IMG/VR virus record: IMGVR_UViG_3300020365_000093
Span: 1-29,054 of that record
Source of the DNA: a virus
Taxonomy: Duplodnaviria > Caudoviricetes
Reading direction: 5' to 3' (one strand)
Length of the DNA stretch: 29,054 bases
This document shows positions 1 through 28,950 of the stretch, one piece after another. The notes under the pieces are model-generated. The model was not told the DNA's origin. It searched no databases and worked only from the letters and a program-made list of their open reading frames with translations. Numbering within the stretch: position 1 is the stretch's first letter; every line of letters begins with the position of its first letter. Made by a program: the position numbers and the translations under genes.

Positions 1-129
1 GCGGATGCTATCCATTTTGAAGTCGAGCACGAGTGCTTCACAGAGCATCTCAGTCCACTTGGTAACGTTGTCAGCGAGCTGCTGGCGAGCGTCAGCGGTG
101 GCACAGTAGTCAGCGAAGGTGGTGGTCAT
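1..129 (-). CDS. Small early hypothetical protein, 5' part (runs off window edge)
   Basis: Read by hand: ATG at 129, MTTTFADYCATADARQQLADNVTKWTEMLCEALVLDFKMDSIR, open to base 1; lies just downstream of the promoter repeat at 141-158. Confidence 0.8.
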   Translation of the reverse strand, partial: MTTTFADYCATADARQQLADNVTKWTEMLCEALVLDFKMDSIR

Positions 130-140
130 GGTGTCTTGCG

Positions 141-208
141 TTGATGAACTTAGTATAGAGCAGGATGGGGGTCAGACCATACGGACTGTGACACTATGCG
201 TACCGTCC
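141..208 (-). promoter_or_regulatory. Early promoter copy 1 (dyad + TATACT -10)
   Basis: Minus-strand CTATACTAAGTTCATCAA at 141-158 (-10 at 152-157); dyad GGACGGTACGCATAGTGTC at 190-208. Confidence 0.7.
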
Positions 209-345
209 TTGTTCAGTTGACGTTGCATCAGTTCACTGTGGATACTACGAGCCAGTTGCTGGTCCAGCGTCTGGTAACCAACTTCACCCTCTTCAGGAGT
301 GACAGCGGTGATCTCGTAGTAGTTGCCTTGAACTGTGAGTTTCAT
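172..345 (-). CDS. Hypothetical early protein (57 aa)
   Basis: ORF track 172..402; start moved to ATG 345 (MKLTVQGNYY) because the promoter repeat at 357-373 lies inside the longer ORF. Confidence 0.75.
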   Translation of the reverse strand: MKLTVQGNYYEITAVTPEEGEVGYQTLDQQLARSIHSELMQRQLNKDGTHSVTVRMV

Positions 346-356
346 GGGTGCTTTGC

Positions 357-423
357 TGATGAACTTAGTATAGGGTAGATCACGCCTTGCGGATCTCACC
401 ACCGACCACTACGTCAGCTGGCA
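357..423 (-). promoter_or_regulatory. Early promoter copy 2
   Basis: CTATACTAAGTTCATCA at 357-373 (-10 at 367-372); dyad TGCCAGCTGACGTAGTGGT at 405-423. Confidence 0.7.
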
Positions 424-631
424 CACGGGAGATGGTGTAACGACGGATCTGACCTTCAAACTGACGCCAGGCATCCACAGTCTCGTTCACGATGCGATTG
501 TGCTGACGATCCATGCCCTTGGCAGTCTTGCACTTGCCTTCCTTGCGGAAGTACACAATGGGGTGCTGGGGAGCGTCCACGGTGTCGATCTCGATCTTGT
601 AGTAGGAGTGCTTGACGACTTGAACGGTCAT
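380..631 (-). CDS. Hypothetical early protein (83 aa)
   Basis: ORF MTVQVVKHSYY..., directly downstream of promoter repeat 648-665. Confidence 0.8.
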   Translation of the reverse strand: MTVQVVKHSYYKIEIDTVDAPQHPIVYFRKEGKCKTAKGMDRQHNRIVNETVDAWRQFEGQIRRYTISRVPADVVVGGEIRKA

Positions 632-647
632 GGGTGGTGTCCCTTGG

Positions 648-715
648 TTGATGAACTTAGTATAGGGCTCAGGAGAGCAGTTCCAATGCCTCCTGTGACA
701 GTTCTTCTCGTGGCA
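648..715 (-). promoter_or_regulatory. Early promoter copy 3
   Basis: CTATACTAAGTTCATCAA at 648-665 (-10 at 659-664); dyad TGCCACGAGAAGAACTGTC at 697-715. Confidence 0.7.
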
Positions 716-809
716 TAGTGTCGATCAGACTAGGGATGTCATCATCCCATGCTAGTTCAGCAGTATCAATGTTCTGCAGGAGCCAGCGGTCGAGCATTAC
801 TTCATTCAT
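669..809 (-). CDS. Small acidic hypothetical protein (46 aa, not in ORF track)
   Basis: Read by hand: MNEVMLDRWLLQNIDTAELAWDDDIPSLIDTMPREELSQEALELLS; fills the gap between neighbours, 6 nt after the upstream stop. Confidence 0.7.
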   Translation of the reverse strand: MNEVMLDRWLLQNIDTAELAWDDDIPSLIDTMPREELSQEALELLS

Positions 810-815
810 AATAGT

Positions 816-998
816 TCAGAGGTGAGTATTTTCCATAAGGAGCATTTCATCGACAGTCATTTCAAGCTCTGCTGCCTTTAGTTCAAGATGATCACAGCAA
901 GTGTCATCATCGTGGAGATCAATCTCTTCCATGTCTACATGTGCAGTGAGTTTACCGAACAACATGTCGAGAAAATCGTGGTCGTCTTTAGAAAACAT
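816..998 (-). CDS. Small acidic hypothetical protein (60 aa)
   Basis: ORF track 816..1061; start moved to ATG 998 (MFSKDDHD), which overlaps the end of the 988..1149 gene by 11 nt. Confidence 0.7.
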   Translation of the reverse strand: MFSKDDHDFLDMLFGKLTAHVDMEEIDLHDDDTCCDHLELKAAELEMTVDEMLLMENTHL

Positions 999-1149
999 TG
1001 GTCCAGCGTTCGTGTTGTACTTTGGTGATTTGTCCTGCATGTAACATGTTATCACACACATTACAGAAGACTTGGAACTTCTCCTCTCGGGAGAGGTTAT
1101 GTTTAGCAGCAGTCTCTGCGATAACCTTGGTGACTTGTGCTTTGAGCAT
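988..1149 (-). CDS. Small hypothetical protein (53 aa, not in ORF track)
   Basis: Read by hand: MLKAQVTKVIAETAAKHNLSREEKFQVFCNVCDNMLHAGQITKVQHERWTNVF; packs tightly with neighbours. Confidence 0.75.
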   Translation of the reverse strand: MLKAQVTKVIAETAAKHNLSREEKFQVFCNVCDNMLHAGQITKVQHERWTNVF

Positions 1150-1151
1150 GA

Positions 1152-1199
1152 TCAGAACAGTGAATAGATGATGACAATAACAGCAACAAGGTACAACAT
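1152..1199 (-). CDS. Putative 15-aa hydrophobic microprotein
   Basis: MLYLVAVIVIIYSLF; its ATG overlaps the upstream stop (TGATG) and its stop is 2 nt before the next ATG. Confidence 0.45.
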   Translation of the reverse strand: MLYLVAVIVIIYSLF

Positions 1200-2944: not shown

Positions 2945-2967
2945 GGGTGCGTTGCTTTGATACAGAT

Positions 2968-3023
2968 AGTATGGCATGAAAAAGGGGTGCCGTCAAGCAC
3001 CCCAACCAGTTTGCAAACTGTCC
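2968..3023 (-). promoter_or_regulatory. Early promoter copy 5 with sigma70 -35/-10
   Basis: Dyad GGACAGTTTGCAAACTGGT (3005-3023), TTGACG (2991-2996) - 17 nt - CATACT (2968-2973). Confidence 0.75.
2979..3003 (-). terminator. Rho-independent terminator
   Basis: GGGGTGC-TTGACG-GCACCCC-TTTTT, just after the oxygenase stop codon. Confidence 0.8.
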
Positions 3024-13230: not shown

Positions 13231-16200
13231 TTAGACCTCCATTAGCCACCAACCCTGGACTGAGGTTGGAATACCCGTTTGATTATTACTATCAGTTGAA
13301 CCCAAGTAAACCAATCCAAACGCTGCATTTGGTGTTTGTACAACTAGTTCTCCTGAAGGATATGTAGTCAATCTACCACCGAGTAGTGTGCCTTGAGCAT
13401 CTCCCTGAATCGTAGTTCCAGAAGTTTCTGGAGTTCTAACTACGAGAGATGTATCATATCTGAGATTACCGCCAACTTCGATGATTCTAATAACATCACC
13501 AGTTTGTGCAGTTTCAGGAAGTGTAACAATAAGAGTTTGTGCTGCCTGAACATTTACCATGTAGATAATGTTTGACTTCAAGTTCAACTCTTCTTCAGTA
13601 GAAGCAGCAGAGATGTATCTGGTGTGTCTACCACCTGTAGTAGTATAGAAATTAGTAAATCCAAATGCATCGATCGATTGATCTTGCTTGACAGTAAAGT
13701 CATTAGCACCATTAGGTCCAAGATTACCAATTCTAAATGGTTCACTAGTTGGTGATGGTGTTGCTGCTGCTACACCAGTAATATTCAATGTTGTTTGAAC
13801 CGTGGCATTACCAAAGTTATCAACAGAGAATGTTGGAGTATCATCATCAGGGTTGAAGAGAACGTTCTCTGGGCAAGAAGTGCCGAAGAGATAGAAGTCA
13901 CCTCTACCAATAATACCAGCATTCCACTGAATTAGACCTTGGTGATCAGCGTGACCATCATCATTGAATACTCTAAAGATGGTAGACTCACCAACACTAT
14001 CCTTGATGTGTAGGTTACCGCCAATCATTTCAAAGTCATTAGCAAGGTAGAAATTACCTCTTCTGAATGGAATAGCACCATCACGTTGCTGCTCATTCAT
14101 CACTGCCTTGTGCTTAGTGCCTTCTAGGCGAGCGACAAGACGCATAATACCAGGAGTCTTAGCATAATTACCAGTTGTTGGTAGATTATCAAAGTCCAAC
14201 CACTGGTTGTAATCTAGTTTTGTTTGAGCAATATATCCTTTATCAAGAATAACAGAGATATACTCAGTGCTTACACCAGACTGAACTCTGGTTCTAACTT
14301 CGATATCAAGAATATTACCATATTCAGAATGTCTAATAACTCTTCTTACGAGATCGCCAATTGTAAATTCAGCAGTCTCAGGTGGTTCGTTACCACTACC
14401 AAACATTCCAGTTTCGTCAGAAGTAGCAATATAATCTGCAACAAGTGTTGGGGTTGCAGTGTCAATAACGTCAACGATTAGTAGGACATTGACAAAACCA
14501 GAACTACCGAACGAAGATGTAGAACCAGTAACAATATAATCGCCTACCTGGAACTTACCATCATTGACTCCAAGTCCCTGAACTGGGATTTGATATCTAC
14601 TGGTGGTGCTACCAGTTTGTACAGCAGCACGAATGGTTGTAGAAGGTCCACCATCATTGATAACTGCAGGATCTTCCTGATAACTGACAACAATAGGATG
14701 ATTTTGTGTGCCAAGATTTTGCTTGACTAGACTGATCCATTGATCACGATCAGAGGTAGAAGGTTGAGAATCGCGAGCGAACTCAATCTCCATTCTACCA
14801 ATCCAGTTACCTAGGGTAGTAGTACCTGTGCAGGTATCTGTCTGCCATACTGGTTGATCTTCTTGTCCAGCGTTGATGATAAACTTCTCGTTTCTTTCAG
14901 CAACAAATTGAATACCAGATACAATCTGACCACCGCCAATAACCTCAGACAACCAGAGTTCATTAGAATCTGGAACAATACGCTCAATATAAGTGTCTTG
15001 AACGATAGTAATTGGTGCTTCGTTAGTAATAACTTGGATGTAATCACCAACTTGAATATCCGCAAGAGTTGCATTAGGAGTTGTGATAATAAGATTAGTA
15101 ATCTTATTGGTATTTGCCTGGGTGCTACCAGTAAATTCAACCTGATTGACTGTTCCACAACCACCCTTGATTGTTAGAGTGTTGTTGATTTCAGTTGTTC
15201 CACCAATTGTAATGTCTCCAGTTACAGAGTCAACAACAAATACCTCAGTCTCAGGATCACCACAGTCAGTAATTACGAATCTCTGGACATTTTGCTCTCT
15301 TGGATCACCAACCTTGATAACTTCACCCTGGTTGAAGATTCCGTCTCCATTGGTATCCTCACGATCAAGAATAACATAATCAACGTTAGGAACCAGTGCT
15401 CCACCAAACTCAGAGAGATAAATTGGAGCAGGATCAGTAGAAGCATCAACATCTTGCTCCAACCATGTAGCATCAAACTGAATGTTGACCTTATAGATTG
15501 GAGTTCTATCTGGGTGTGTGTCTAGAACAGCGGTGAAAGTACCAATGCTAGGTGGTTGACGGCGAACCTTGATATAATATGGAGCGATAGTAGTTCTTGT
15601 TAGTTCTACAATCTGAACAATTTCAGGATGGGTGCTTACGCCAACACCGCTATTGATAATGATAAAGTCATTCTCTGCGTAATACTGACCACCCTGAGCA
15701 TCCAGAGGTGCTCTTAGTAGTGGAATGTAATACTCATCACCAGATAGTGCAGGTAGATCCTGAGGTTCAATAACAGGTGTACCACCTAGGTTTGCTCTTG
15801 GTGCCTGGAATCCAGCACCACCCCATGCACCGTTACCTGCGGTATCAACTTCGTTATAACCAGCTTCGGCACTAGTAAGAACTTTGACATTGATAATATC
15901 GACGTTCTTATTGAATTGAGTATCACTAATAATACCGTCTTCATGAGAAGCGACAGCAGATCCCAACTGTCCTCTAGCACCATCAAATGCGAAGGAAGCA
16001 ATACCACCACAGATCTTGACATCTCCCTTGAATTCGGCAGATGCAATAACTTCTAGTTGGTTATTGATAGTAGTTGTACCACCCTGACCTGCAATGTTGA
16101 TCTCGGAAGCATTTAGACCAAAGTTGATAACAGAAGCAGAACCAGAGTTAGAGAAGAAGTCAACCTGACCAGCGGTAGTAGATAGTGTTACCGTGTCATT

Positions 16201-19200
16201 GATAGTTCTTCTTGCACCTAACTGGAAGTCACCATCAACCTTGAAGGACTTAGTTTTGATTCTAGTAAAGGATAGAGACTCACTGCTGCTATATGCACCA
16301 CCAATCTCAACCTTACTGATTGTCAGTGCATTATCACTAGGTCTATCATCAGGAGTTACACCCAAGAAGACATTACTGTGCAGTGAAGTTTGACCAATTC
16401 TGATAAACTGATCTGCAGTAGTATCATTGCCAAGAGTAATAATCTCAGCAAGATTAGCAATATTTGCTTGAGATGTTACATAGTTGGCAATATTGATAAT
16501 GCCAGTAAAGTTAGTGTCATTGACAAAATTGAACGTTCCGACAGTCTCAGAAGTTCTGATTTCAGCAACAGATCCATCACCATTGATTTCAATGTCACGC
16601 TCAAAGCGTACATCTTCAGTGAATCTAGCATCGCCACGAACAACTAGTGCTCTGTCAAGTTCAGCATCAGTTACGTTGATACCAACCTTATTCTCATTGT
16701 TGCCTCTACCAGACTCAGTAATTGCTACAGTCTCAGTAGAAACACGTAGAGCAGCACGAACCTGATCAATTACGTTGCTATTTGGAGATGCTTCATCTTC
16801 CCAACCAACGACAAGTGCATCAGAGATTCTATTTCTCTCACGAGCATTATAGTTATCTTCAGACAACCAATCGCTCATCTTGCGACCGCTGATGTATGCA
16901 TTACCAACGATATCAAGGTTTGCACGAGGATCAGTGTTGAGAGACTCAACAAATCCGTTTAGATATGCCTCGTGATTTGCTCTTGCAACAGTGTTGATAC
17001 CAAGTTTGAAATCGCCATAGGTTTCAGTCTCAGTTCTCAGTGCTTCACCACCGATGATCATTGTCTCCTTCCAGTTGGAGTTGGAGGAAGAAACCTTAGC
17101 GTTTGGTGATGGGTTGTTTGGATCATTTACGAAAGTAGTCCAGTTAGTACCACCAAATGCGGGGATTGGGCTACCAGTTCTCGATGTAATCAAGAAGTAA
17201 ACAACGTTGCTGGCAGGATTGTAAGGATATTCAGTAGTTGAAAGTACCTTCCAAGTTCCATTAAGAGCATTGCTATAATTGATGTTCTCTAGTTTGATCT
17301 CAGAAGTCGATTTGATTCCGAGGGAAGAGACAGAAACAGCATCTGAGTTAGCATCGATGAAAGTAAGAATACCAATGTTAGTATTCTGATCAACTCTGAC
17401 TTCAATAGAAGCAATCTTTCTTGCTGGATCAGTTGGATCAGAAGGAATCTGATTGAAGATATTAGCGAAGACCCAACCAAGTGAACCATTCTTATTGATC
17501 GATCCACCCTTGAGTAGGATGTCTCCAGTATCAGGTAGAACGTTGGTGTAAGATACAGTTTGTGCTACATTGAGTTTTGATCCACCAGCAGAAACCAAAC
17601 CATCTTGGTTTGGAGTTAGGTTGGAAGCAACACCACCAGGAGCATGTGTCTGAATCTTATAACCTTGTCCAATACCACCGCGTGGGTTGAATGCAAAGAT
17701 TGCAGAATCAATGCGGTTCTTACCAATTCTGATATCACCAGCATTATCACCAAAGTTGTTGAGTGGGAATAGATCACGATCTAGACCCTCAGAGTCTTGA
17801 GGGTTGCCCTTATAGTCAACACTATGAACAAACGATTTGATGATCAGAGGTACACCCTGATTCTGCATCTGTGATGGTGGAATTGGACCATCAGCACAGG
17901 TGATAGTAATTGGTGAATTGAAGTTAGAAACCAAAGTACCATCATCACCACCAACAATAGTGATGTTCTGATTGAATGTAACTGGTGTCTCGAATGATGT
18001 AACGAGTTGTCCGATTACATCATCCTCATCTCCATCGTCGGCAAGAAGTGCTCTATCAATGAAGGTTTCTTCACCAGTGATAGCGTTGATTCTTCTATTA
18101 CCAATGTAAAGGTCACCCTGTGAGTTGATACCAGTGTAGAAGACGATACCAGCGTCTTGCTTCTTCGACTGTGCGTAGAAGTCCTCGTCAGGTGTTAGGA
18201 CAATCTCCTGACGTGCTGGGAGACCTGTAGAGTAGTTACCAGGACCGAAACCAAGGTATTCAAACGTGTGGTTACCAGCACGAGCGATAGATGGTCTACG
18301 GAGTTCAACGTAGTAACGCTGATCTGTCCAGACTCTGTTATCACCAGCAATAGGAATAACACGATCTTCAGAACCAGCAGATGCATTACCTTGCTGTGCT
18401 TCAATTACAGTCTTGAGATCTTGAGTATCAGTTGTATACTCGTTCTCAATAAATGCAGGTTGCTTGAGTAGATCAATAACAAGTTCTCTAGTTACAGAAC
18501 CCTTGACATCATTGACAGTAACCTTACCATGAATGTAATTGTCAGCAGCAGAGTATGACTGAGGTGGATCAATCAACTGTGCATAGTAATCTTTCTCTTC
18601 GTTGCTTGTACCATCTTTCTTGAACCAAAGAGGATCGTTTCTGTAGTTCAGAGGATACAGTTTGCCAACTGGTTGTGAGAACTTGAACTTGCGGAAGTTG
18701 GTAGAAACACCAGCACCTTGTGGGAATGGAGAGATATTACCACGGAGAGCAGTTAGATAGTAGATACCATCTTGCTGACCAAAGATACGTTTCTGTAGCT
18801 CAGCACTATCGAAGATGTAGAAGGTGTCTTCAATAACACCAGTGTCCTCAACAGTTTCAACATAGTATTGGTTACCAGCACTGTCCTGAATAGTATCACC
18901 AGGAGTAATGGTGTAAACATTGGAACCGTTTTGCTTGTAATAATACTCAGGATAATTTTTCTTGATATGAGTTTTCAGAGGTAGGGATTTGCCCATATCC
19001 TGATCCTCAAGCATATCGGCAAATACCGCACCCTGTTGGAATCTTGTAGACTGGAACTCACTATACTCTAGGGAAGCAGATCCCTTAGCACCACTAATAC
19101 CCTTGATGATTAGGTAGTGATCGCCACCAACATTATAGTATCCATGAATATATGCAGTACCAGAAGAATTACCAGAGAATCCAATAGTGTTAGTAGAAAT

Positions 19201-22200
19201 ACTCTGAGTCTTATTGGTAACAAATGTACCACCCTGAGGTGCAGTAATCTTGACAGTTGTGAAGATTTCGTTTCTTAGACCAGAGAAGTTGACAGTATCA
19301 ACAGTGTGGTCGAAGACCGTCAGTTCTAGATACTGAATGTTTTCATCTAGTCTATCTGTGATGTAACGACCAGACTGGATGGTTGCCTGGATACCAGAGG
19401 TAAATCTAGCATAGATTGGTGCATTATATGGATCATAACCATCTTCAGCTGGAGTTAGGTTATTTGCTCTTAGTTGCTCGATAGTATCACCAATGTACTC
19501 AGTTCCACCAGGAACAGCGAAACGGGCACCATATACATTACCAGATACAGGCTTGAGTAGAATCTTCTGAGGTACTAACTTACGAGTGTCGTCAGTTCTT
19601 GTCTTGAGAACAAATCCATTGATAGGATCTCTTGCGTTCTCAATGTACTTAGGAATGACATAACGTAGTTTGTATGTTCTGTCATTTGCCTCACGAGTAT
19701 CATTGACACGCTCATACCATGTATCAGTGGTAGAATCCTTACCCTGATAATCAGAAGATCCAAGTAGACTATAGATCTGCTTATCAATGACTGTTTGATC
19801 AGTCTCACCAGTAATATTATCTGCAGTCTGTAGATACCACTTACCAGTTGTAGTAACAGCATCAGTAAAGGTTGGATCGAAACGCATTGGGCTACGCTTC
19901 TTATTCATGAAGACTCTGAATCCTTTCTCACCTGGATTGAGTTTGATAGGATCTAGATTGTTTTGTGCATCAGATTGAGTCTTGTGGATAGTAAAGACTT
20001 TTGGTGAAACATAACGTACATAGAACTCTTTATTAGGATCGATGAAGTTAGCATTAGGAGCAGCAACAGCTGGATCACTCTGGAAGTCTTGTGCAAGAAT
20101 TGGAGGAGTTGCACCACTTACACCACGGAAGAATACTGTTTGAGGAGTAGTTGATGCAGATGGAACATCAAAGAAGTGTGCAATATCAGTTTGAATACCA
20201 CCATCGACGGAGGTATTAGTCTCAGCAATATAGGTAATAAGATCATACTTGTTATCAAGTACGAATTGGTACATATCGATCTCAACGTCTGGATCGATAA
20301 CATCAACTTCAGAAGCGTAGATGTAAATACCTGCTGCTGCGTTCTCCTTAGAGGTTGCAAGCATCAGTTTAGTCTGATCTTGACCATTGAAGTATACGCT
20401 ATTATTATACTCAACCCCACCCTCACGAGTGCTTCTACCAGGAGCAATTACATAGTAGGTTGTATTAGTGTCGAAACCGTTAGGTAGTCTTACAAGACGC
20501 TTATCAACATCAACAAACTTACCTGAGCTTCTATCGAAACGAGGACGTGGTACAAGTCTTACAGGTGTACCAGTTTCAAAGTCATGTGGATTAGGAGCAC
20601 CAGATCCATCAATATCGATAGTCCAGATTGTTGCTCTCTGTGCAAGTAAGGCAGTGTTGAATGTTGGTTCAACACGATCTACAGTAGGAACAGTTACACC
20701 ATTTACAATCTTGGTTAGACCAGTCTCAATAATGGTGGTGATGTTATCAGTAAGTTGAATAATTGCTGCAGCAGTAGAAGCACACTCACGTTGAGATGTA
20801 GATACTGTTGTATCAGCAATAACATCAGGATCTTCGCTTTCAGGTGCGACAGTTACAGTTTGTGGAAGTGTATCTGCCCAAGCACCCTCTTCAAGCATAA
20901 AGTGTAGATGTAAAGCACCACCAGCAGTGTAAGTGTCTGTAGCAACAACACTATTGCCAGTGTCTAGTCTAGAATCTTTGACTCCAAGTCTAATTGTAGT
21001 AGAGTCAATAATCTCTTTAACATATGTTTCAGCAGGAATTGTACTGGTTACCAAGTAGTTTGCCTTGGTAGCAGGATCTTTTGCTTCATCTTTGAGTAGA
21101 CCAGGAGCACCATCAGCAGTTCTATATGCACTAGCAAGGTATTCCTCAACCCTCATACCAATCAGGATACCTGAAGTATCACCAACATCTACGATGTCAG
21201 ATTGATCTACAGTTCCACAACCCCATGCAACGAAGTCAAAGTTACGCATTGCTGCGATTGCCATGCTTCCAACATAGTTCCAAGCATCAATAGTCTCTGC
21301 TTTCTCTCCATCAATATACTCAAGTTGAGCACCACCAGCAATTACAGAATCTGTAGTGGCACTTACAAATGTGTGTACAGTTTGTGGTAGATGTTTTACA
21401 GCATCATTAGCAGCAGTTACAAATGTGTGAGCAGAAGTATCAGAAGAAGTTCCTACGTTGACTGTAATCGTAGTCGCTGTAACTGCTTCAATTGCAATAG
21501 ATCTGCCAGCGAAAGGATCTGTACCAGGACGTGGATATGTGTGCTGGGTAGCATTGTTATCTAGAGCACATGTGAATGTGAAGGAGTTATCTTCAAGAAC
21601 TACACCTTCACCAACTGATAGTGTATGAGCACCAATAGTGATCTCCATGACACCAGTTGTTGGGTCATAAGTAGCATTAGATGGAGTAAATGATACGTTA
21701 GGACCAGATGCTCCAACATTGACTGTAACTGTAGTTGGAGTAACTGCAGTAACTTGGATAGATCTTCCAGCATATGGATCAATGCCAGGGCGTGGATATG
21801 TCTTTTGCGTTTGATCATTATCCATTCCACATGTAAATGTGAATCCATTATCAGCGAGTCTGATACGTCTACCAACTTCGATGCCATGATTACCAATCGT
21901 AACCGTAAAGTCGCCAGTTGCAGGATCATAAGTTGCATCAGTTGGAGTATATCCTCTAGTGCTAGAAGTACCTACAAAGTATGCTTCACCTGCTTGTACT
22001 GAGTTGATGTTACCACCATACTTGAGGTCATTAGCGATAGCATCAACGATGTAAGCAACGTCTCTATAGCACTTAGATGACGTTGCATTGAGCGTAAAGT
22101 CACCAGGATTTACAACAGGTAGATCAGCAATAGAACCGCTAGAAATGGCATCTGTGATGATGTCAAAGAGGTTCTCGATAGAAGAACGAACGTTTGCACA

Positions 22201-25200
22201 ATCCCAATTACCAGTGCTGAGACTTGGCAGATCATCAAGGTTACCAGCAACCAAAGCATCACATACAATACTAGTCAAGGTATTGACAGTTGCTAAAACA
22301 TCAGAGCAGTTACCTTCCGCATATGTAGCAGGTTGGTATGCCTTTGCAGCACGAGGATAGGAATGAGTGGTTACATTTTGATCCTTAGTGCATGTAAATG
22401 TTAGACTCTCAGTCTTGATTCTGATGCTAGTAGAAGCATCAATATTATGTGGAGCAGAAGTAGTAACAGTAACTACTCCAGTTGCAGGATCATAAGTTGC
22501 ATCTGTTACATCATGCTCAACTAGTGGAGATGTTCCAACGTTGAGTGTAATACTTCTATCGGTAACACTAGCAATTGTAATTGACTGACCAGCATATGGG
22601 TCAACACCAGGACGAGGGTATGATTTCTGTGCAGTGTAATCATCCATTGCACACTTGAATGTAAACGAATTGTCTGCAAGTGTTACAGATGAACCAGCAT
22701 TTAGTCCATGAGCGTTTTGGGTGTAGATAACAAATAGACCCGTTGTTGCATCATAGGTTGCATTGATTGGTGTTAGTGAACCACCACCTGCCCAACCAAC
22801 AGCATCAGCAGCAACGCTTACAAATCTATGATCATATGCACCACCAGATACGATTGCACCAGGCAATGCCTTGACAAATGTATGTGGATATACGTGAGTA
22901 GAAGTACCAACGGTAAACGATAAGGTACTACCTGAAGCAGAAGATAGATTGACTGCAGTATTATATGCAGGATCAGCAGGAGCACCAGTTGTTCTAGTAG
23001 CAGTTAGTGTACCTACGCCACTGTCATTACCAATTGCCTGAATGATGATACCCATAAGTGTATCAACTGCAGCAACAGCAGAACCACAACGTGGTAGCAA
23101 TGCATCTGCATCCCAATCATTGACAATAGTAGTATCAATGCTTTGAGTTAGGGAGTTACCAGCAGAGACTGATACTGCCTCGTTTTTGATAACCTGCATC
23201 GCGATGTTTTTCGCCTCGGTCATTACCTTAGCAGCTTCATCACGCTCAGCATCAATGAATGTTTCTACAGTATTGCCATCTCTATAATCGTAGTTAGTAA
23301 CATAGATGTTAGCAGCGTCATAAGTCTTGGAGTTTCCACCAAACTTAACATCCCACATAACTTCTTTGAGGACGCTAACAACATCATCTCTACAATCCTG
23401 TGCAGTATTTCCTGCGGATGGAGTGTAAGAAGGATATGCAGCAAGCATACGCTCATATGCTTCTGCAGCAATGAAATCAACATTAGCAAGAACCATGTCA
23501 TGTGCATCACACTCGATGTCACCAACAATAGTAGGATCTCCAATAGTATCAAGTGTGATGTTTAGATCGCGATCATAATAAACGTTGTTCAATGCACGCT
23601 GCATTAGATCTTCAGCACGCTTGAAGCATGTAATTGCAGGACCAACTTCATTATCTACACCGTTGGTGATTAGAGAGTTACCATTGAAGTATTCCTTAGT
23701 TGCAGCAATAGTATACTCATTACCACCAAACCATAGATCTTGTGCAATAGCATCAACAACGTGACCGATATCTCTACGGCACTTGATTTCCGCAGCTTCA
23801 AGACTAGAAGGAGTCTCTGCAGGTAGGTTGTTCAGGTTGCCAGCAGTAATTGCATCAGTTACATAAGTTGCAAGAACTGAAATTTCTGACTGTACATTAG
23901 CACAGGAATTTGGATCTTGGTTGTCATTAGTTAGTGGATCGGGAGTTACAGTTAGATCCTTATCATACAACTGATTAGTAACTGCTTTGATCATAAAATC
24001 AGAAGCAGCACCGAAAGCAGTTACACTCTCAGATTCTTCTCCCAATAGACCATTGGTGATAGGTGCGTTACCGTCAAAGTATTGCTGGATGAAAGTTCTG
24101 GTGTGCTTATTGCTTCCAGTATATACATCAACTGCGATAGCATCGATGAAGTAACCAATATCACGAGCACACTTAGTTTCACCAGGACCACCTTGACCCT
24201 TATTGATCTCAAGAGGTAGAGTGGATAGATTACCAGTAGCGATAATTGTTGTGATAATAGATGACAGTGAGTCAACTGCAGACTGAACATCAGAACATAG
24301 TAATTGCTGTTCTTTATTCTGATTAGCAGTATTACCAGCAAATGTAACTGCGCCTGTTTGTGCAGTTGAAAATGTGTGATTGCTGAAGTTTGTGTTACCA
24401 TCACCAACATTAATAGTAATAGTATCAACAGTAACTGCATCAATTCTAATTAGTTTCTGCCATGCAGGGTCACCCGATCTTGGATATCCAGTGATTTGAT
24501 TATTACCATCTAGATCACAAGTGAATTGGATACTGCCAGTAGCAAGTTCAATAAAATCACCAACAGACAAACCATGCTTAGCAATGCTAAGAACAGTAAC
24601 ACCAGTGTTAGGATCGTAAGTTGCAAAATGTGGAGTAAACGACTGAGTTACTTGACCATATGGATTTCCTGGCGAATTATCAGCAGTAACTGTTAGGTCT
24701 TTCTCATAAAGCTGGTTAGTGAGTGCTTTCTTCATCATATCAGCAGCTTTATTGAAAGCAGTGATACTTTGTGCTTCTTCACCTACAAGACCATTAGTAA
24801 TAGGTGTAGTTGCATTAGAGAAGTATTCTGCAGCGAATCTATGAGAATACTCATTACCATTGATGAAGAGGTCAAGAGAAACAGCATCAACAAAGTATCC
24901 AATGTCTCTACGGCATTTAGTTTCTACTACACCACTGGTATATCCAGTTTCTGCAACCATACCAGAAAGTGTACCTGCCTGAAGAACATCAGTTACAATA
25001 GTTGTTAGACTATCAATAGCAGACTGAACATCAGCACAGGATGTAGGATCTAGGTTATTTCCTGTTGCGGAATCAGGTGTAATGGATAGATCTTGAACAG
25101 ACAACTGGTTTGTAATTGCCTGCTTCATGAGGTCTCTTGCCTCTTCAAAAGCACGCTGACTTTCAGTTTCTTCTCCAACTAGACCATTGTTGATTGGGTT

Positions 25201-28200
25201 ACCATTATCATCAAAATACTCAGAGATAAACTTACGAGCGTACTTGTTACCACCCATGAAAATATCAAGGGAGATAGAATCAACGAAAATGCCAATATCT
25301 CTCTTACACTTAGTCTCGACAGAAGCAACGCCAGGGTATGCACCGACCATATTAGTCCATGCAGTATCGACAATTTCAGTTCTGTTCTGCTGGATTAGTC
25401 TATAGGAGTCAGCATATCTAGAACCACCATCAGTTTGTGGTTCGCCTGGGAAGTAGAAATCAGGATGTTCTACAGCAATCTGTGCTAGGGAACGATCTAG
25501 AATTTCGTCTTTGTTTGCCTGAATGAGGCGGTGTGCATCAGCGTATCTAGAACGCTCATCAGTCTGAGGATCACCAGGGAAGTAGAAGTCTGGATGTGCT
25601 AGATTGATTGCTGCAAGTGCATTATCTCTAATCTCTTTGCTGTTACGACGAATAGACTTATATGCATCAGCAAAACGAGTTGTGGAATGATTTCCATTCA
25701 GACCAGGAATTACAAAGTCTGGGTGATATACAGCAATTTCTGCAACAGCTGCATCAAGAATAAACTCGCGGTTAGCAACAATACGATTACGAGCATCCTT
25801 ATAGCGACTAGCAGGATCTTTCAGGTTAGCAGCATCAATAGTGACACCTTCGCTATCTAGTCCAAGTGCAGCAGATCCAGTGTTACCAGCAACGATACCA
25901 TATGGTGCTAGAGGACTGTTAGGATTGGGATCATAAATCGTTGCTTTGACTGTTAGAAGATTAGCAATTGCTTTCTTACAGAGATCTCTTGCTCTATTGA
26001 ATGCAAATACTGATTGATCTTCTTCACCAACCAAACCATTTGTGATAGGTGCATCATTACCATCAAAGTAGAACTTAGTTGCTTCGATGATATTTCTATT
26101 GCCACCGTCTCTAAGGTCTTCAGCAACAGCATCAACAATAAAACCAATATCACGCTTACACTTACCATCAGCAACACCCTGGATGTTACCAATACCAAAT
26201 GTCTCGACCATTTGGTCGAATGCGGTATCAACAATTTCCTGGCGGTTTGCAAGAATTAGATTCTTAGCATCAAAATAACGGTTAGCAGCAGGGTTTAGAG
26301 CAGGGTTGACATATGAAATGTTCTGGAGTCTAGGATACTTCTCTAGGATGTAACCAAAGACTTCCTCCTGAATCATAGTACGGTTGCTTTCGATTAGGTT
26401 AGCACCGTCTACGTTGTTATTATCAATGGTGAAAGTTGTTGGATTTAGAGTAGATGCCTTAGCAATATACTTGACAAATCCTGTTGGTGATAGTTCTGCT
26501 TCAAAGATGCCACCATCCTTGACATAAAGTGTGTCACCAGACTTAGCACCAATTCTGTAACCACCAATGGTAGCAGCAGGGCGAACGAGTGGGTTATCTA
26601 GGTCAACACCACCCAAGAATAGTTTCTTGTATACACCAGCAGATTGGAACTCAGCCTTGGTTCCCTGAACATCCAAAGTGTAGTAAAGAACTTTCTCTAC
26701 ATTTGTCTCATCTTCTACAACTTGTGAAGGAGGAATAATGTCAGTAATGTAACCCGCCTTATCTTGGTTGAAGGAGAATCCTTTGAAACCAATAGCATGA
26801 AGTGATGTATTACCGAAGTTGGAGTTAGAGTTGGTGATCGACATGTCACCACCCGACTCCATCAGGAAGTGATCAGCGAAACCAACAGCGAAGATCGAAA
26901 CGTTCTGGATAAATGCATCATCAGAAGCACGGACGTGGAAGTTTCTCCAGTCATCCTTCCAGTAAGAATCACCCTTAGCGTGATAAGGAACCGTAGCAAA
27001 TGCGTCAACTAGTGATGCTTGGTTCCAAGTGTTTGCGTATTCGTCGTAGCGGATGAATGCTCTGTCGTCTCTCTGGAGCGAAACACCCGTGTACTGCGCG
27101 ATAACCATGGATTTGAATCCAGTGGCTTTCAGACCGTTTGCCCAGATTCCGCAAATACCCCAAACCGAACGGATTGAGACGTTGAAAACATAAGGAGACG
27201 CGGACTCAACAGAGTCAACTTCCGCGAGAACCTGTGCGTTCTGACCTAGTGCGGGAGCAGAGTTTACGCTTACTTCTTTATTATCAGTGAGACCTTGACC
27301 GATTCCAGATACAACAAAAGGAACACGATAAGAGAACTTACGAGGATCATCAGAGATCTCGTAGATTGGCCAGAAACCTTCAATCTCCTCGTCAATGTCT
27401 GTACCAGAAATAGCAACAAACTGACCAGCAAAATAACCGTGGTCAACCTTTGTTGTTACTTCAATATTACAACTAGAAGTACCAGCAATATCATTGAACT
27501 TCAGAGATTCGATAACTCTGGAGTCAGATAGAGGACCAACAATTCTGTTTTCCTGAACGTTGAAATCAAACTCAGGAACACCATTTACAGAGGTGTTGAT
27601 GGTTGGTTGATACTTCTCAAATGCCTTAGCAACCTTTCTGTAGTAGAGTTGCAGTTCTTCTTTATCTGCGTACTCAAATACAGTTAGTTTGTGGTGAGAG
27701 AAGTTAGGGATTGCCTTCTTCGTGAAGTCATATGGATCGTAATAAACCTCACCAGATCCGATAGAAGGATTGTAAAGTGGAGACTCAGCAGTAGTCTGAC
27801 CATCCTTGATAGTGAACTGCCAGAAATAACAACCACCAGTTACATTGAAGATAGCAGAGCGAGGATATGTAACTGAGGAAGGTTCAGGAACGTAGAGAGG
27901 ACGAACAGTGGTTCTACGTAGGTCATAACCTACAAGAGAAGAACCTCTGGGGATGATAGCACCACCCTCAGTATTGTTGAACTTATAGAGGACGTTATCA
28001 GGGTTAGAAATGTCCAGAATAGGATCATCACCCCATGACTCTAGTGCTTGACTAAAGTCAAATGCTTCAATGCCACTAGTGTCAACCAGACCAGGACGGT
28101 TATCAATGTAGTGGATGCCAGGCATCAACATCACAGTAAACTGGTCAAATCTATCATTAGATGGACCAGGAGTATAAGAATATCTTGCAATCTCTAGGAA

Positions 28201-28344
28201 AGCACGCTGAATACTCTTAAACGGAGTTACAGGGGAATTACCTCTGTTAGATAACGAATCTGTCGCGTTAAAATCATCTGGTGAAACATAAAGATACTTA
28301 CCAGTCTTTGAGCTGATAAGGTTATCTAAACGTGTTAATGGCAT
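13231..28344 (-). CDS. Giant virion structural protein (5037 aa), putative tail fibre/baseplate-associated
   Basis: 15.1-kb uninterrupted ORF behind a late promoter; N-terminal LYVSP...D...N.G.S...PFKSIQRA motif typical of phage fibre/beta-helix proteins; internal repeats; C-terminal LIVTLPETAQTGDVIRIIE...GW motif typical of T4-like baseplate/fibre proteins. Confidence 0.85.
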   Translation of the reverse strand: MPLTRLDNLISSKTGKYLYVSPDDFNATDSLSNRGNSPVTPFKSIQRAFLEIARYSYTPGPSNDRFDQFTVMLMPGIHYIDNRPGLVDTSGIEAFDFSQALESWGDDPILDISNPDNVLYKFNNTEGGAIIPRGSSLVGYDLRRTTVRPLYVPEPSSVTYPRSAIFNVTGGCYFWQFTIKDGQTTAESPLYNPSIGSGEVYYDPYDFTKKAIPNFSHHKLTVFEYADKEELQLYYRKVAKAFEKYQPTINTSVNGVPEFDFNVQENRIVGPLSDSRVIESLKFNDIAGTSSCNIEVTTKVDHGYFAGQFVAISGTDIDEEIEGFWPIYEISDDPRKFSYRVPFVVSGIGQGLTDNKEVSVNSAPALGQNAQVLAEVDSVESASPYVFNVSIRSVWGICGIWANGLKATGFKSMVIAQYTGVSLQRDDRAFIRYDEYANTWNQASLVDAFATVPYHAKGDSYWKDDWRNFHVRASDDAFIQNVSIFAVGFADHFLMESGGDMSITNSNSNFGNTSLHAIGFKGFSFNQDKAGYITDIIPPSQVVEDETNVEKVLYYTLDVQGTKAEFQSAGVYKKLFLGGVDLDNPLVRPAATIGGYRIGAKSGDTLYVKDGGIFEAELSPTGFVKYIAKASTLNPTTFTIDNNNVDGANLIESNRTMIQEEVFGYILEKYPRLQNISYVNPALNPAANRYFDAKNLILANRQEIVDTAFDQMVETFGIGNIQGVADGKCKRDIGFIVDAVAEDLRDGGNRNIIEATKFYFDGNDAPITNGLVGEEDQSVFAFNRARDLCKKAIANLLTVKATIYDPNPNSPLAPYGIVAGNTGSAALGLDSEGVTIDAANLKDPASRYKDARNRIVANREFILDAAVAEIAVYHPDFVIPGLNGNHSTTRFADAYKSIRRNSKEIRDNALAAINLAHPDFYFPGDPQTDERSRYADAHRLIQANKDEILDRSLAQIAVEHPDFYFPGEPQTDGGSRYADSYRLIQQNRTEIVDTAWTNMVGAYPGVASVETKCKRDIGIFVDSISLDIFMGGNKYARKFISEYFDDNGNPINNGLVGEETESQRAFEEARDLMKQAITNQLSVQDLSITPDSATGNNLDPTSCADVQSAIDSLTTIVTDVLQAGTLSGMVAETGYTSGVVETKCRRDIGYFVDAVSLDLFINGNEYSHRFAAEYFSNATTPITNGLVGEEAQSITAFNKAADMMKKALTNQLYEKDLTVTADNSPGNPYGQVTQSFTPHFATYDPNTGVTVLSIAKHGLSVGDFIELATGSIQFTCDLDGNNQITGYPRSGDPAWQKLIRIDAVTVDTITINVGDGNTNFSNHTFSTAQTGAVTFAGNTANQNKEQQLLCSDVQSAVDSLSSIITTIIATGNLSTLPLEINKGQGGPGETKCARDIGYFIDAIAVDVYTGSNKHTRTFIQQYFDGNAPITNGLLGEESESVTAFGAASDFMIKAVTNQLYDKDLTVTPDPLTNDNQDPNSCANVQSEISVLATYVTDAITAGNLNNLPAETPSSLEAAEIKCRRDIGHVVDAIAQDLWFGGNEYTIAATKEYFNGNSLITNGVDNEVGPAITCFKRAEDLMQRALNNVYYDRDLNITLDTIGDPTIVGDIECDAHDMVLANVDFIAAEAYERMLAAYPSYTPSAGNTAQDCRDDVVSVLKEVMWDVKFGGNSKTYDAANIYVTNYDYRDGNTVETFIDAERDEAAKVMTEAKNIAMQVIKNEAVSVSAGNSLTQSIDTTIVNDWDADALLPRCGSAVAAVDTLMGIIIQAIGNDSGVGTLTATRTTGAPADPAYNTAVNLSSASGSTLSFTVGTSTHVYPHTFVKALPGAIVSGGAYDHRFVSVAADAVGWAGGGSLTPINATYDATTGLFVIYTQNAHGLNAGSSVTLADNSFTFKCAMDDYTAQKSYPRPGVDPYAGQSITIASVTDRSITLNVGTSPLVEHDVTDATYDPATGVVTVTTSAPHNIDASTSIRIKTESLTFTCTKDQNVTTHSYPRAAKAYQPATYAEGNCSDVLATVNTLTSIVCDALVAGNLDDLPSLSTGNWDCANVRSSIENLFDIITDAISSGSIADLPVVNPGDFTLNATSSKCYRDVAYIVDAIANDLKYGGNINSVQAGEAYFVGTSSTRGYTPTDATYDPATGDFTVTIGNHGIEVGRRIRLADNGFTFTCGMDNDQTQKTYPRPGIDPYAGRSIQVTAVTPTTVTVNVGASGPNVSFTPSNATYDPTTGVMEITIGAHTLSVGEGVVLEDNSFTFTCALDNNATQHTYPRPGTDPFAGRSIAIEAVTATTITVNVGTSSDTSAHTFVTAANDAVKHLPQTVHTFVSATTDSVIAGGAQLEYIDGEKAETIDAWNYVGSMAIAAMRNFDFVAWGCGTVDQSDIVDVGDTSGILIGMRVEEYLASAYRTADGAPGLLKDEAKDPATKANYLVTSTIPAETYVKEIIDSTTIRLGVKDSRLDTGNSVVATDTYTAGGALHLHFMLEEGAWADTLPQTVTVAPESEDPDVIADTTVSTSQRECASTAAAIIQLTDNITTIIETGLTKIVNGVTVPTVDRVEPTFNTALLAQRATIWTIDIDGSGAPNPHDFETGTPVRLVPRPRFDRSSGKFVDVDKRLVRLPNGFDTNTTYYVIAPGRSTREGGVEYNNSVYFNGQDQTKLMLATSKENAAAGIYIYASEVDVIDPDVEIDMYQFVLDNKYDLITYIAETNTSVDGGIQTDIAHFFDVPSASTTPQTVFFRGVSGATPPILAQDFQSDPAVAAPNANFIDPNKEFYVRYVSPKVFTIHKTQSDAQNNLDPIKLNPGEKGFRVFMNKKRSPMRFDPTFTDAVTTTGKWYLQTADNITGETDQTVIDKQIYSLLGSSDYQGKDSTTDTWYERVNDTREANDRTYKLRYVIPKYIENARDPINGFVLKTRTDDTRKLVPQKILLKPVSGNVYGARFAVPGGTEYIGDTIEQLRANNLTPAEDGYDPYNAPIYARFTSGIQATIQSGRYITDRLDENIQYLELTVFDHTVDTVNFSGLRNEIFTTVKITAPQGGTFVTNKTQSISTNTIGFSGNSSGTAYIHGYYNVGGDHYLIIKGISGAKGSASLEYSEFQSTRFQQGAVFADMLEDQDMGKSLPLKTHIKKNYPEYYYKQNGSNVYTITPGDTIQDSAGNQYYVETVEDTGVIEDTFYIFDSAELQKRIFGQQDGIYYLTALRGNISPFPQGAGVSTNFRKFKFSQPVGKLYPLNYRNDPLWFKKDGTSNEEKDYYAQLIDPPQSYSAADNYIHGKVTVNDVKGSVTRELVIDLLKQPAFIENEYTTDTQDLKTVIEAQQGNASAGSEDRVIPIAGDNRVWTDQRYYVELRRPSIARAGNHTFEYLGFGPGNYSTGLPARQEIVLTPDEDFYAQSKKQDAGIVFYTGINSQGDLYIGNRRINAITGEETFIDRALLADDGDEDDVIGQLVTSFETPVTFNQNITIVGGDDGTLVSNFNSPITITCADGPIPPSQMQNQGVPLIIKSFVHSVDYKGNPQDSEGLDRDLFPLNNFGDNAGDIRIGKNRIDSAIFAFNPRGGIGQGYKIQTHAPGGVASNLTPNQDGLVSAGGSKLNVAQTVSYTNVLPDTGDILLKGGSINKNGSLGWVFANIFNQIPSDPTDPARKIASIEVRVDQNTNIGILTFIDANSDAVSVSSLGIKSTSEIKLENINYSNALNGTWKVLSTTEYPYNPASNVVYFLITSRTGSPIPAFGGTNWTTFVNDPNNPSPNAKVSSSNSNWKETMIIGGEALRTETETYGDFKLGINTVARANHEAYLNGFVESLNTDPRANLDIVGNAYISGRKMSDWLSEDNYNARERNRISDALVVGWEDEASPNSNVIDQVRAALRVSTETVAITESGRGNNENKVGINVTDAELDRALVVRGDARFTEDVRFERDIEINGDGSVAEIRTSETVGTFNFVNDTNFTGIINIANYVTSQANIANLAEIITLGNDTTADQFIRIGQTSLHSNVFLGVTPDDRPSDNALTISKVEIGGAYSSSESLSFTRIKTKSFKVDGDFQLGARRTINDTVTLSTTAGQVDFFSNSGSASVINFGLNASEINIAGQGGTTTINNQLEVIASAEFKGDVKICGGIASFAFDGARGQLGSAVASHEDGIISDTQFNKNVDIINVKVLTSAEAGYNEVDTAGNGAWGGAGFQAPRANLGGTPVIEPQDLPALSGDEYYIPLLRAPLDAQGGQYYAENDFIIINSGVGVSTHPEIVQIVELTRTTIAPYYIKVRRQPPSIGTFTAVLDTHPDRTPIYKVNIQFDATWLEQDVDASTDPAPIYLSEFGGALVPNVDYVILDREDTNGDGIFNQGEVIKVGDPREQNVQRFVITDCGDPETEVFVVDSVTGDITIGGTTEINNTLTIKGGCGTVNQVEFTGSTQANTNKITNLIITTPNATLADIQVGDYIQVITNEAPITIVQDTYIERIVPDSNELWLSEVIGGGQIVSGIQFVAERNEKFIINAGQEDQPVWQTDTCTGTTTLGNWIGRMEIEFARDSQPSTSDRDQWISLVKQNLGTQNHPIVVSYQEDPAVINDGGPSTTIRAAVQTGSTTSRYQIPVQGLGVNDGKFQVGDYIVTGSTSSFGSSGFVNVLLIVDVIDTATPTLVADYIATSDETGMFGSGNEPPETAEFTIGDLVRRVIRHSEYGNILDIEVRTRVQSGVSTEYISVILDKGYIAQTKLDYNQWLDFDNLPTTGNYAKTPGIMRLVARLEGTKHKAVMNEQQRDGAIPFRRGNFYLANDFEMIGGNLHIKDSVGESTIFRVFNDDGHADHQGLIQWNAGIIGRGDFYLFGTSCPENVLFNPDDDTPTFSVDNFGNATVQTTLNITGVAAATPSPTSEPFRIGNLGPNGANDFTVKQDQSIDAFGFTNFYTTTGGRHTRYISAASTEEELNLKSNIIYMVNVQAAQTLIVTLPETAQTGDVIRIIEVGGNLRYDTSLVVRTPETSGTTIQGDAQGTLLGGRLTTYPSGELVVQTPNAAFGLVYLGSTDSNNQTGIPTSVQGWWLMEV
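20720..26420 (-). repeat. Seven dispersed helical KCxRD-type protein repeats
   Basis: Core Cys codons at 26158, 25306, 24913, 24169, 23779, 23392, 22069 (C729, C1013, C1144, C1392, C1522, C1651, C2092). Confidence 0.9.
21345..24640 (-). repeat. Five ATYD(P/A)xTG...F(T/K)C...YPR beta-module protein repeats
   Basis: Copies at about 24360-24640, 22350-22780 (two) and 21345-21955 (two). Confidence 0.85.
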
Positions 28345-28447: not shown

Positions 28448-28798
28448 CTAAGGCAACACAATGAGTTCTGGAAGTTCAACTAAACCATGATCTAATAGTC
28501 TATGACAATTTGCACATATTGGAGCACACTTGTCAATTTCTTGCTTCAATGTTTTGTAACTAGCAAACTGCAATAGTTTAGATACGCTGTACATTTTTGG
28601 TGAAGGATCAACATGAATGAGATCCATTTGTACAGGATGAAATTCTTTATTACAAATAATACAAGGATTCTTCTTTGCATCCTCTACTATCTGTTTTCTC
28701 CTCTTATGACTAATTTGATTTGCTTTATAAGTCTTAGAATTCTTTCTAGCCCACTCACGCTGATACTTACGATTTTCTTCTTTATCTTTGTAAGGCAT
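28448..28798 (-). CDS. HNH endonuclease-like protein
   Basis: CIIC...MDLIHVDP..K...EIDKCAPICANCHR..DH: Zn-binding CxxC pairs around an HNH core, basic N-terminus. Confidence 0.8.
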   Translation of the reverse strand: MPYKDKEENRKYQREWARKNSKTYKANQISHKRRKQIVEDAKKNPCIICNKEFHPVQMDLIHVDPSPKMYSVSKLLQFASYKTLKQEIDKCAPICANCHRLLDHGLVELPELIVLP

Positions 28799-28868
28799 AA
28801 CCTAGAAACTTCTACTAAACATATGTAGATATAACTGAATTGTTCTCTATAAGTTGTTCTATACATAA

Positions 28869-28941
28869 CTCCTCCACCTGGGCTCGAACCAGGGACAAAT
28901 TGATTAACAGTCAATCGCTCTACCTACTGAGCTATAGAGGA
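28869..28941 (-). tRNA. trnN: tRNA-Asn (GTT)
   Basis: Acceptor TCCTCTA/TGGAGGA, D arm GCTC/GAGC, anticodon arm ATTGA-CTGTTAA-TCAAT, T arm CCTGG-TTCGAGC-CCAGG; CCA not encoded. Confidence 0.97.
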
Positions 28942-28950
28942 ATGGGAATT

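Follow-up and report, generated by a model that had tools for sequence, protein, structure and literature searches.

The window analysed here is the entire 29,054-base IMG/VR virus record IMGVR_UViG_3300020365_000093 (Duplodnaviria; Caudoviricetes; completeness ~15%), in which one open reading frame (ORF; 13231..28344, minus strand) encodes a 5,037 amino acid (aa) protein of tail-fibre type. Between aa 645 and 2543 this protein hosts a nest of repeated helical domains, and the evidence leans towards seven nested phycobiliprotein beta-like globin domains that likely carry bilins on two conserved cysteines, one of which is probably loaded by the phage's lyase CpeT. Each domain would consist of an opener (N; helices A and B), a core (K; helices E to G, with a CxRD motif) and a closer (C; helix H), which together form what sequence profiles and structural models predict to be a phycobiliprotein beta-like globin domain.

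The motifs were located using position-specific profiles built on those of the window and iterated over homologues. Reversed-sequence controls scored <14 bits and shuffled controls gave a single hit near 18-20 bits, and nearly all hits in the homologue set were >25 bits. Scanning of the whole 5,037 aa protein identified exactly seven openers, seven core first halves, seven core second halves and seven closers in the order N0 N1 K1 Na Nb Nc Nd K2 C K3 C K4 C K5 N6 K6 C C C K7 C, and the numbers and order proposed in a first-pass annotation made from the sequence were thereby borne out. This order parses as N0[N1 K1[Na[Nb[Nc[Nd K2 C1]K3 C2]K4 C3]K5[N6 K6 C4]C5]C6]K7 C7, a nest of six levels with one branch, and the bracket-like balance noted in that annotation arose in <0.00005 of 200,000 shuffles of the seven-domain string. 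The four tandem openers were found as described, beginning at aa 849, 892, 935 and 978 (43 aa spacing; window 25333-25800) with HPDFYFPG repeated 129 nucleotides apart, and the two closers said to stand as orphans before the last core lie at aa 2012 and 2048. A KCxRD motif had been ascribed to every core, and here the claim needs correction, as CxRD is present in six of the seven and core 6 has CxDD; the cysteine is found in all seven.

The first-pass annotation was right that the repeats are helical domains, but did not recognise their likeness to phycobiliproteins. The protein matched PF00502 with 35.8 bits (cut-off 22.2), a score summed over the repeats, with no single stretch passing alone, and PF00502 was already precomputed for many of the database proteins described below. 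A profile of 30 contiguous domains matched 131 sequences in the PDB at E-values up to 10 (best E 8.8e-5), and the best 60 of the 131 were all phycobiliproteins, beta chains first; only this profile search matched, a single-sequence PDB search with the inner domain giving nothing useful. The predicted inner domain has the globin-type helical core A, B, E, F', F, G and H, and its model superimposed on phycoerythrin (5aqd_M) with Z 15.7 and a root-mean-square deviation (rmsd) of 2.0 over 137 residues, photocobilin and ApcE structures ranking just below. The phycoerythrin match begins at chain residue 30-33, and the N-terminal X/Y dimerisation helices are thus missing. Foldseek analysis of the window model gave a probability of 1.00 and a target template modelling (TM) score of 0.59-0.76 at E-values above 0.04, with no match at E 0.001 or below.

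It is very probable, from homologues and models, that the parts pair in a nested, last-in-first-out manner, N0 with K7 included. In homologues with one opener (L026, L036, L052 and L059), an Na-like opener is directly joined to a K5-like core, and homologues with three openers keep Na (91% to the seven-domain class), Nb (86%), K4 (81%) and K5 (92%). Comparisons between proteins of unequal size gave an opener-core concordance of 0.83 for nested, 0.50 for first-in-first-out and 0.28 for random pairing (2,872 comparisons in a sample of 40 of 47 proteins), and core-closer concordance was 0.80 for nested versus 0.72 for first-in-first-out pairing (0.76 versus 0.31 in the serial lineage described below). 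Nd and K2 are 33 aa apart, the spacing seen in uninterrupted domains.

An AlphaFold2 model of aa 843-1600 had a predicted local distance difference test score (pLDDT) of 79 and a predicted TM score (pTM) of 0.75, with the opener helices at 87-95. When Na-Nc and K3-K5 were modelled as separate chains the complex scored 0.82, the best of three controls scoring 0.00; the mark applied to such models lets through 116 of 157 solved complexes along with 2 of 215 mismatched pairs. The split-chain runs shared at least 78% of contacts, with partner pLDDT at least 75, and the interface takes in the three openers and three cores as well as both closers, the best-resolved contacts being those of Nb with K4 in the window's own sequence. 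Folding of the stacked openers among themselves, which had been named beforehand as an outcome that would refute nesting, is rejected, since the openers drop to a pLDDT of 40 when given an unrelated partner, and in the split-chain model Na-Nc dock on K3-K5.

A whole-nest model was made on the six-domain homologue L002 in place of the longer nest of the window (pLDDT 79, pTM 0.63), and single globins align to five of its six predicted spans (Z 6.2-14.3, 104-139 residues). The spans include residues 292-449 (innermost domain), 689-860 (N6..C4), 205-899 (Na..C5), 45..937 (N1..C6; Z 10.3, rmsd 3.9, 139 aligned) and 1..1176 (N0..C7; Z 7.6, rmsd 3.2, 110 aligned). First-in-first-out pairing is rejected for the window's family on the strength of the one-opener homologues, the concordance values and these spans. 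Among the pairs expected at the outset, Nd-K2, Nb-K4, Na-K5 and N0-K7 were recovered in models or homologues and Nc-K3 by elimination only. The proposal that domains are assembled from distant parts of the chain finds support in the five L002 spans and the Nb-K4 contacts, all of them predicted.

The homologue sample comprised 114 sequences (the window and 113 loci), from which 9 ending before the nest, 3 of other protein families and 25 judged partial by a length rule blind to balance were set aside, leaving 77 homologues with 62 distinct motif sets. All 62 distinct complete homologues are balanced, with three to nine domains, and they fall into two lineages, a stack type with one to four stacked openers and a serial type of the form (NKG)n Cn. 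Joint variation of openers and cores, the other check set in advance, was thus seen in 62 of 62. Domain number varies while the flanks stay constant, and the beta modules in the loops are gained and lost between homologues. The serial-lineage homologues L043 and L069 (N973 to K3629), L053 and L078 have non-globin inserts of up to ~2,650 aa within a single B-E loop.

Balance extends to database proteins (96 of 120), of which 93 have the form N^k(KGC)^k, where k = 2, 3 or 4; these belong mostly to a second family with lengths of about 960, 1,140 and 1,320 aa. Of the 24 that are unbalanced, 19 begin or end inside the nest and 5 have a last closer scoring under the threshold. A profile search gave 1,374 clusters at 50% identity, and 146 new proteins among the best 150 clusters were parsed. 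The two-cysteine form was found in 56 of these 146 distant proteins, and 39 of the 56 parse outright, with up to 15 domains. P0121, with 15 domains in a branched order, is balanced, and the branched orders of L050 and L024 likewise parse. P0122 has 10 stacked openers, a depth of 10 and 12 domains, and parses with weak-scoring motifs.

Several observations weigh against nested pairing or limit the evidence for it. P0124, a relative of P0122, has seven stacked openers and eight cores, which is either a true exception or a collapsed repeat. Beyond the 39 that parse outright, the two-cysteine proteins include eight that parse with weak-scoring motifs (two of them doubtful), two fragments and seven that were unparsed. 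The second family does not discriminate, with concordance of 0.618 for nested and 0.615 for first-in-first-out pairing (40 sampled). The complex test may be passed by the two halves of a known fold through their resemblance to solved phycobiliproteins. In a 3x3 arrangement, Nb-K4 takes the middle place whether the order is parallel or antiparallel, and Na-K5 therefore rests on the homologues and the L002 model. Most long-span rows in the L002 model have Z 6-8.6, values common for helical folds according to the tool, no structural-alignment row in that model covers the Nb domain, and the alignment ranges give end residues only and are those of a homologue's model. In the window's own model, all globin rows land on the inner domain.

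In the predicted arrangement (all coordinates on the minus strand), the outermost domain begins with opener N0 (26332..26412; helices A and B), the predicted partner of K7 and C7, and domain 1 with opener N1 (26194..26274; partner of K1 and C6), followed by core K1 (25954..26166), which runs from the CxRD helix to helix G. The stack consists of Na (25720..25800; partner of K5 and C5), Nb (25591..25671; K4 and C3), Nc (25462..25542; K3 and C2, by elimination) and Nd (25333..25413), the last forming the innermost contiguous domain with K2 (25102..25314) and C1 (24970..25041; helix H, Cys1103). Further along are K3 (24709..24921), C2 (24229..24300; Cys1350), K4 (23968..24177), C3 (23836..23907; Cys1481) and K5 (23578..23787), and then a side-branch domain within the G-H loop of the Na/K5 domain, made up of N6 (23431..23511), the CxDD variant core K6 (23176..23400) and C4 (23020..23091; Cys1753). 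The first orphan closer, C5 (22240..22311; Cys2013), would close Na/K5, the second, C6 (22132..22203; Cys2049), N1/K1, and C7 (20716..20787; Cys2521) N0/K7.

Four beta-rich inserts lie within the nest. A G-H loop between K3 and C2 (24301..24708) holds one module that is missing from close homologues, e.g. L001. The insert between C4 and C5 (22312..23019) has two modules, with end motifs (aa 1821 and 1839) ahead of start motifs (1862 and 1949), as if circularly permuted. A 217 aa insert (21319..21969) divides core K7 into a first half with CxRD (21970..22077) and a second half with helix G (21235..21318); it has two modules, one apparently within the other, and two start motifs (aa 2137 and 2224) stand ahead of two end motifs (2306 and 2324). 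The fourth, in the G-H loop of the outermost domain (20788..21234), is kept in homologues. The beta-rich modules thus seem to be nested themselves.

Daughter domains would sit in either the B-E loop or the G-H loop of the parent, six deep, leaving and re-entering it via short linkers (12-19 aa in the stacks), and the short linkers at both ends of an insert would allow domains to be added or lost with the flanking fibre sequence unchanged. In the six-domain forms, the inner domain is a hybrid, its opener being nearest to Nd (70%, versus 54% to Nc), its core nearest to K3 (78%, versus 69% to K2) and its closer nearest to C2. Gain or loss of a whole Nd-K2-C1 block would leave Nc-K3-C2, and the hybrid is therefore better explained by two separate tandem duplications, affecting the opener array and the core array respectively, which is with modest confidence the preferred account of the step from six to seven domains. 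The repeated insertion of whole domains proposed in the first-pass annotation therefore holds in part, as the side branches (N6-K6-C4 and the extra domains of L024) look like whole-domain insertions, but the six-to-seven step resembles paired tandem duplication. The copies are 60-76% identical to a reference copy at the DNA level, indicating that the duplication events are old.

Pigment-attachment residues were sought using blind profile scans over Acaryochloris CpcA and CpcB (two CpcB proteins). The opener Asp fell on beta-Asp39, the core Cys on beta-Cys82 or alpha-Cys84 and the closer Cys on beta-Cys153, and the Asp39 and Cys153 placements hold in both CpcB proteins. Asp39 is the partner of the Cys153/155 bilin. 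Out of 300 shuffles, the CpcB score was reached in the two proteins by 1 and 1 (opener), 7 and 13 (core) and 2 and 1 (closer). The core CxRD segment scores better on alpha chains than on beta chains. The closer profile still selects the last helix of CpcA, though weakly, in spite of the lack of a Cys at that place. HMMER alignment of the closer end to phycobiliproteins in the PDB was weak, with one match out of register.

Among 619 unique domains, the core Cys is present in 595, CxRD in 493 and the closer Cys in all 619, and an intradomain disulfide between core and closer is disfavoured because all 24 domains without the core Cys still have the closer Cys. Domain 1 has lost its core Cys throughout one sub-lineage (20 loci, e.g. 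L011, L013 and L014), with the closer Cys kept. The opener Asp was found in 90 of 91 units with a closer Cys and 30 of 454 units without. A one-cysteine class, without the closer Cys and mostly without the opener Asp, makes up 90 of the 146 distant proteins, mostly as tandem arrays of up to 34 cores, with CxRD in 1,115 of 1,182; its profile matches CpcA weakly (E 0.02). Such arrays occur in phages of ~330 kb (P0125, P0131 and P0135; loci L114-L146). CXRD is described as the chromophore motif of phycobiliproteins and of BBAGs (PMC10151467).

A gene for CpeT lies 0.3-3.5 kb upstream of the nest gene in all 48 loci with at least 3 kb of flanking sequence, and in 54 of 55 with at least 2 kb. Among complete phage isolates, the domain and cpeT occur together in 8 of 8 that bear the domain (S-WAM2, S-PM2, S-RIM2, P-HM1, P-HM2, P-SSM4, P-SSM7 and P-RSM6; seven cpeT calls by Pfam and that of P-SSM7 by annotation only), and neither was matched in P-SSM2, P-SSP7 or Mosig. 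A tblastn search with one CpeT sequence found only 71 records, an under-count, as the S-RIM2 cpeT was found by Pfam. We know of no substrate for phage CpeT. T-type lyases attach bilin at Cys-beta155 (PMC2327270 and PMC10452541), and CpeT is of the lyase class that acts on Cys153. One of the two cysteines would thus probably be loaded by the phage's own CpeT lyase, and the balance tips slightly towards a bilin held covalently on the domains and attached within the infected cell; the pigmented nest would then be displayed on the virion. As the X/Y helices of host alpha-beta dimers are missing, the unit would be a pigment-type module on a virion protein and no antenna subunit.

The distribution of the domain matches the light-dependent adsorption reported in PMC6628666. 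P-HM1 and P-HM2, which have the domain, do not adsorb in the dark, and adsorption of S-PM2, which also has it, depends on light independently of photosynthesis, whereas P-SSM2 and P-SSP7 adsorb in the dark. Three points weaken the match: P-HM1 and P-HM2 are sister phages, P-SSP7, a podovirus, is unrelated, and light still enhances the adsorption of P-SSM2. Gating of adsorption by light through a bilin-loaded arm is therefore offered tentatively, as a rather unlikely function, though if the domains are loaded it ranks ahead of photoprotection or fold stabilisation. Equally speculative is the broader proposal that virions of T4-like cyanophages are biliproteins, in which CpeT and bilins of host or phage load up to 14 pigments per chain and the arm gates adsorption by light. 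If so, viral CpeT would gain a substrate, light-dependent adsorption would be explained, and the enigmatic hemO plus pcyA/X cassette would have the one-cysteine class found in jumbo phages as its target.

A number of findings count against bilin loading. A shared fold by itself shows no function. The cpeT gene was absent from the 29-kb window, which stops 710 bases upstream of the giant gene, in S-RIM2 and P-HM1 cpeT is far from the domain genes, and the adjacency of cpeT and the nest may be plain synteny. The isolate negatives are soft, as the Pfam search missed the annotated cpeT of P-SSM7. The profile of the core second half does not find helix G of CpcA or CpcB, and the coupling of opener Asp to closer Cys is largely a split between two clades. 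A bilin reductase was matched without the domain in P-SSM2 and Mosig, and G001, a phage record of ~330 kb (93% complete) with 17 CxRD domains, gave no match to heme oxygenase, bilin reductase, CpeT or CpeS.

The data do not support bilin reductases as a universal companion of the domain, given the reductases of Mosig and P-SSM2 without a domain match and the G001 domains without a reductase match. In 15 one-cysteine records (G001-G015), psbA and cpeT were each matched in none, and heme oxygenase and bilin reductase each in two; the genes for the latter two enzymes are adjacent in two of three near-complete one-cysteine records (L174). Among fragments picked only for that reductase, 5 of 20 carry the domain (the 20 largest of 75, without a matched control, and with a summed completeness of about 5.5 genomes).

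The main rival to bilin loading is that the nest is real but free of pigment, a rigid spacer of adjustable length that displays beta-rich modules, its cysteines being structural or forming disulfides between domains or chains. This is a distinct but lesser possibility. It accords with three to nine domains between constant flanks, with the gain and loss of beta modules in loops, with the loss of the core Cys in 24 of 619 domains and with the 17 CxRD domains of G001 in the absence of any bilin-gene match. Against it, domains that share only 20-60% identity keep equivalents of both bilin sites and of Asp39, the closer Cys persists where the core Cys is lost, and cpeT tracks the domain among the isolates tested.

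Mimicry in or at the host, with the pigment sites serving only to bind lyases, NblA-type proteins, linkers, free bilins or a surface receptor, is improbable. All 351-380 matched phage records are from cyanophages or marine viruses, in line with mimicry, but the X/Y helices used in phycobilisome assembly are missing, large structural proteins of several kinds harbour the domains, and the one-cysteine class is found in jumbo phages without a psbA match. Even less probable is another register, or pairing between chains of a fibre oligomer by domain swapping with the equal counts reflecting stoichiometry. In its favour, tail fibres are often trimers, equal counts alone leave the register unfixed and the second family does not separate registers, but the Nd-K2 spacing, the abutment of Na and K5 in one-opener homologues, the single-chain models that put nested ends into one globin-like unit and the branched orders of L050, L024 and P0121, which still parse, all speak for nesting within one chain.

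Nested globins of putative pigment-binding type share with the phycobiliprotein beta subunits (CpcB and CpeB; PF00502) the globin core A-H, predicted here, and the equivalents of Asp39, Cys82 of CxRD and Cys153. Unlike those subunits, the phage domains have no X/Y helices, are split in three parts up to 1,900 aa apart, lie inside a phage structural protein and have a diverged helix G region, and their chromophore is putative; nor are they stand-alone chains of 160-180 aa that form alpha-beta units for light harvesting, being internal to a 5,037 aa protein. BBAGs (the BBAG/photoglobin clade) are non-antenna globins, and some of them have CXRD and bind bilins without lyases; they are bacterial proteins and are described neither as nested nor as virion parts (PMC10151467). 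A precedent for recursive nesting is the Si3 region of cyanobacterial RpoC2 (RNA polymerase), where hybrid-motif domains are nested to about six levels with branching nodes (PMC13114784). The two share recursive self-nesting of one domain family in a balanced A1-B1-C-B2-A2 order (62/62 complete homologues here). Si3 consists of small hybrid-motif domains in an enzyme, whereas the phage unit, an all-helical globin, has two loops that take insertions and the depth of its nest varies freely among homologues, reaching 10 in P0122. The phycobiliprotein fold and recursive self-nesting were thus already known. Giant tail-fibre proteins of T4-like cyanophages (S-WAM2 YP_009324190 and S-RSM4) share the PHROG 4527/529 family and gene neighbourhood, and their annotation goes no further than tail or short tail fibre. 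The literature searched, which included few subscription papers, yielded no account of phycobiliprotein-like domains in virion proteins or of their nesting.

In the nest, nature has inserted one helical domain into itself, to a depth of six in this protein and of ten in a relative, and the many natural length variants should be useful for the study of folding and domain evolution. If the domains do bind bilin, the virus particle may itself carry pigment.

The giant protein matches the tail-fibre family PHROG 4527 (E 0) and PHROG 529 by profile, the latter covering aa 1-607 and then aa 2784-3482, which suggests that the nest and its flanks (aa 608-2783) are an insert in a PHROG 529 scaffold. 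The product is accordingly classed from its sequence as a tail-fibre-type protein, with its virion location taken from annotation. In a paralogous family (P0026, P0031 and S-PM2 L113) the nest is located near aa 100 instead. Several different large virion proteins per genome carry the domain (three in S-WAM2 and two each in S-PM2, P-HM1 and P-HM2), and the carriers include proteins annotated as the gp7 baseplate wedge (L110-L113; records W01-W04 and W08-W11). The repeat region matched 380 phage records and the inner domain alone 351, and as all are labelled Synechococcus, Prochlorococcus, 'Cyanophage' or marine virus, the host of the virus is likely to be a picocyanobacterium. The closest isolate, S-WAM2 (YP_009324190), has an identical seven-domain motif string.

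Just upstream of the giant gene are an HNH endonuclease gene and a tRNA-Asn gene (28448-28942, minus strand), and S-WAM2 has the same layout between cpeT and the fibre gene. On its downstream side, the giant gene is followed by three collar-domain genes and one for a tail chaperone. An N6/N4 DNA methyltransferase gene (window 1692-2977, minus strand) overlaps an upstream gene encoding a 179 aa protein of PHROG 6927, and the two are possibly a restriction-modification-like pair. A collar-domain fibre protein with long Gly-rich tracts is encoded at window 6800-10663 (minus strand), and its C-terminus gave a Reelin-subrepeat-like match below the cut-off.

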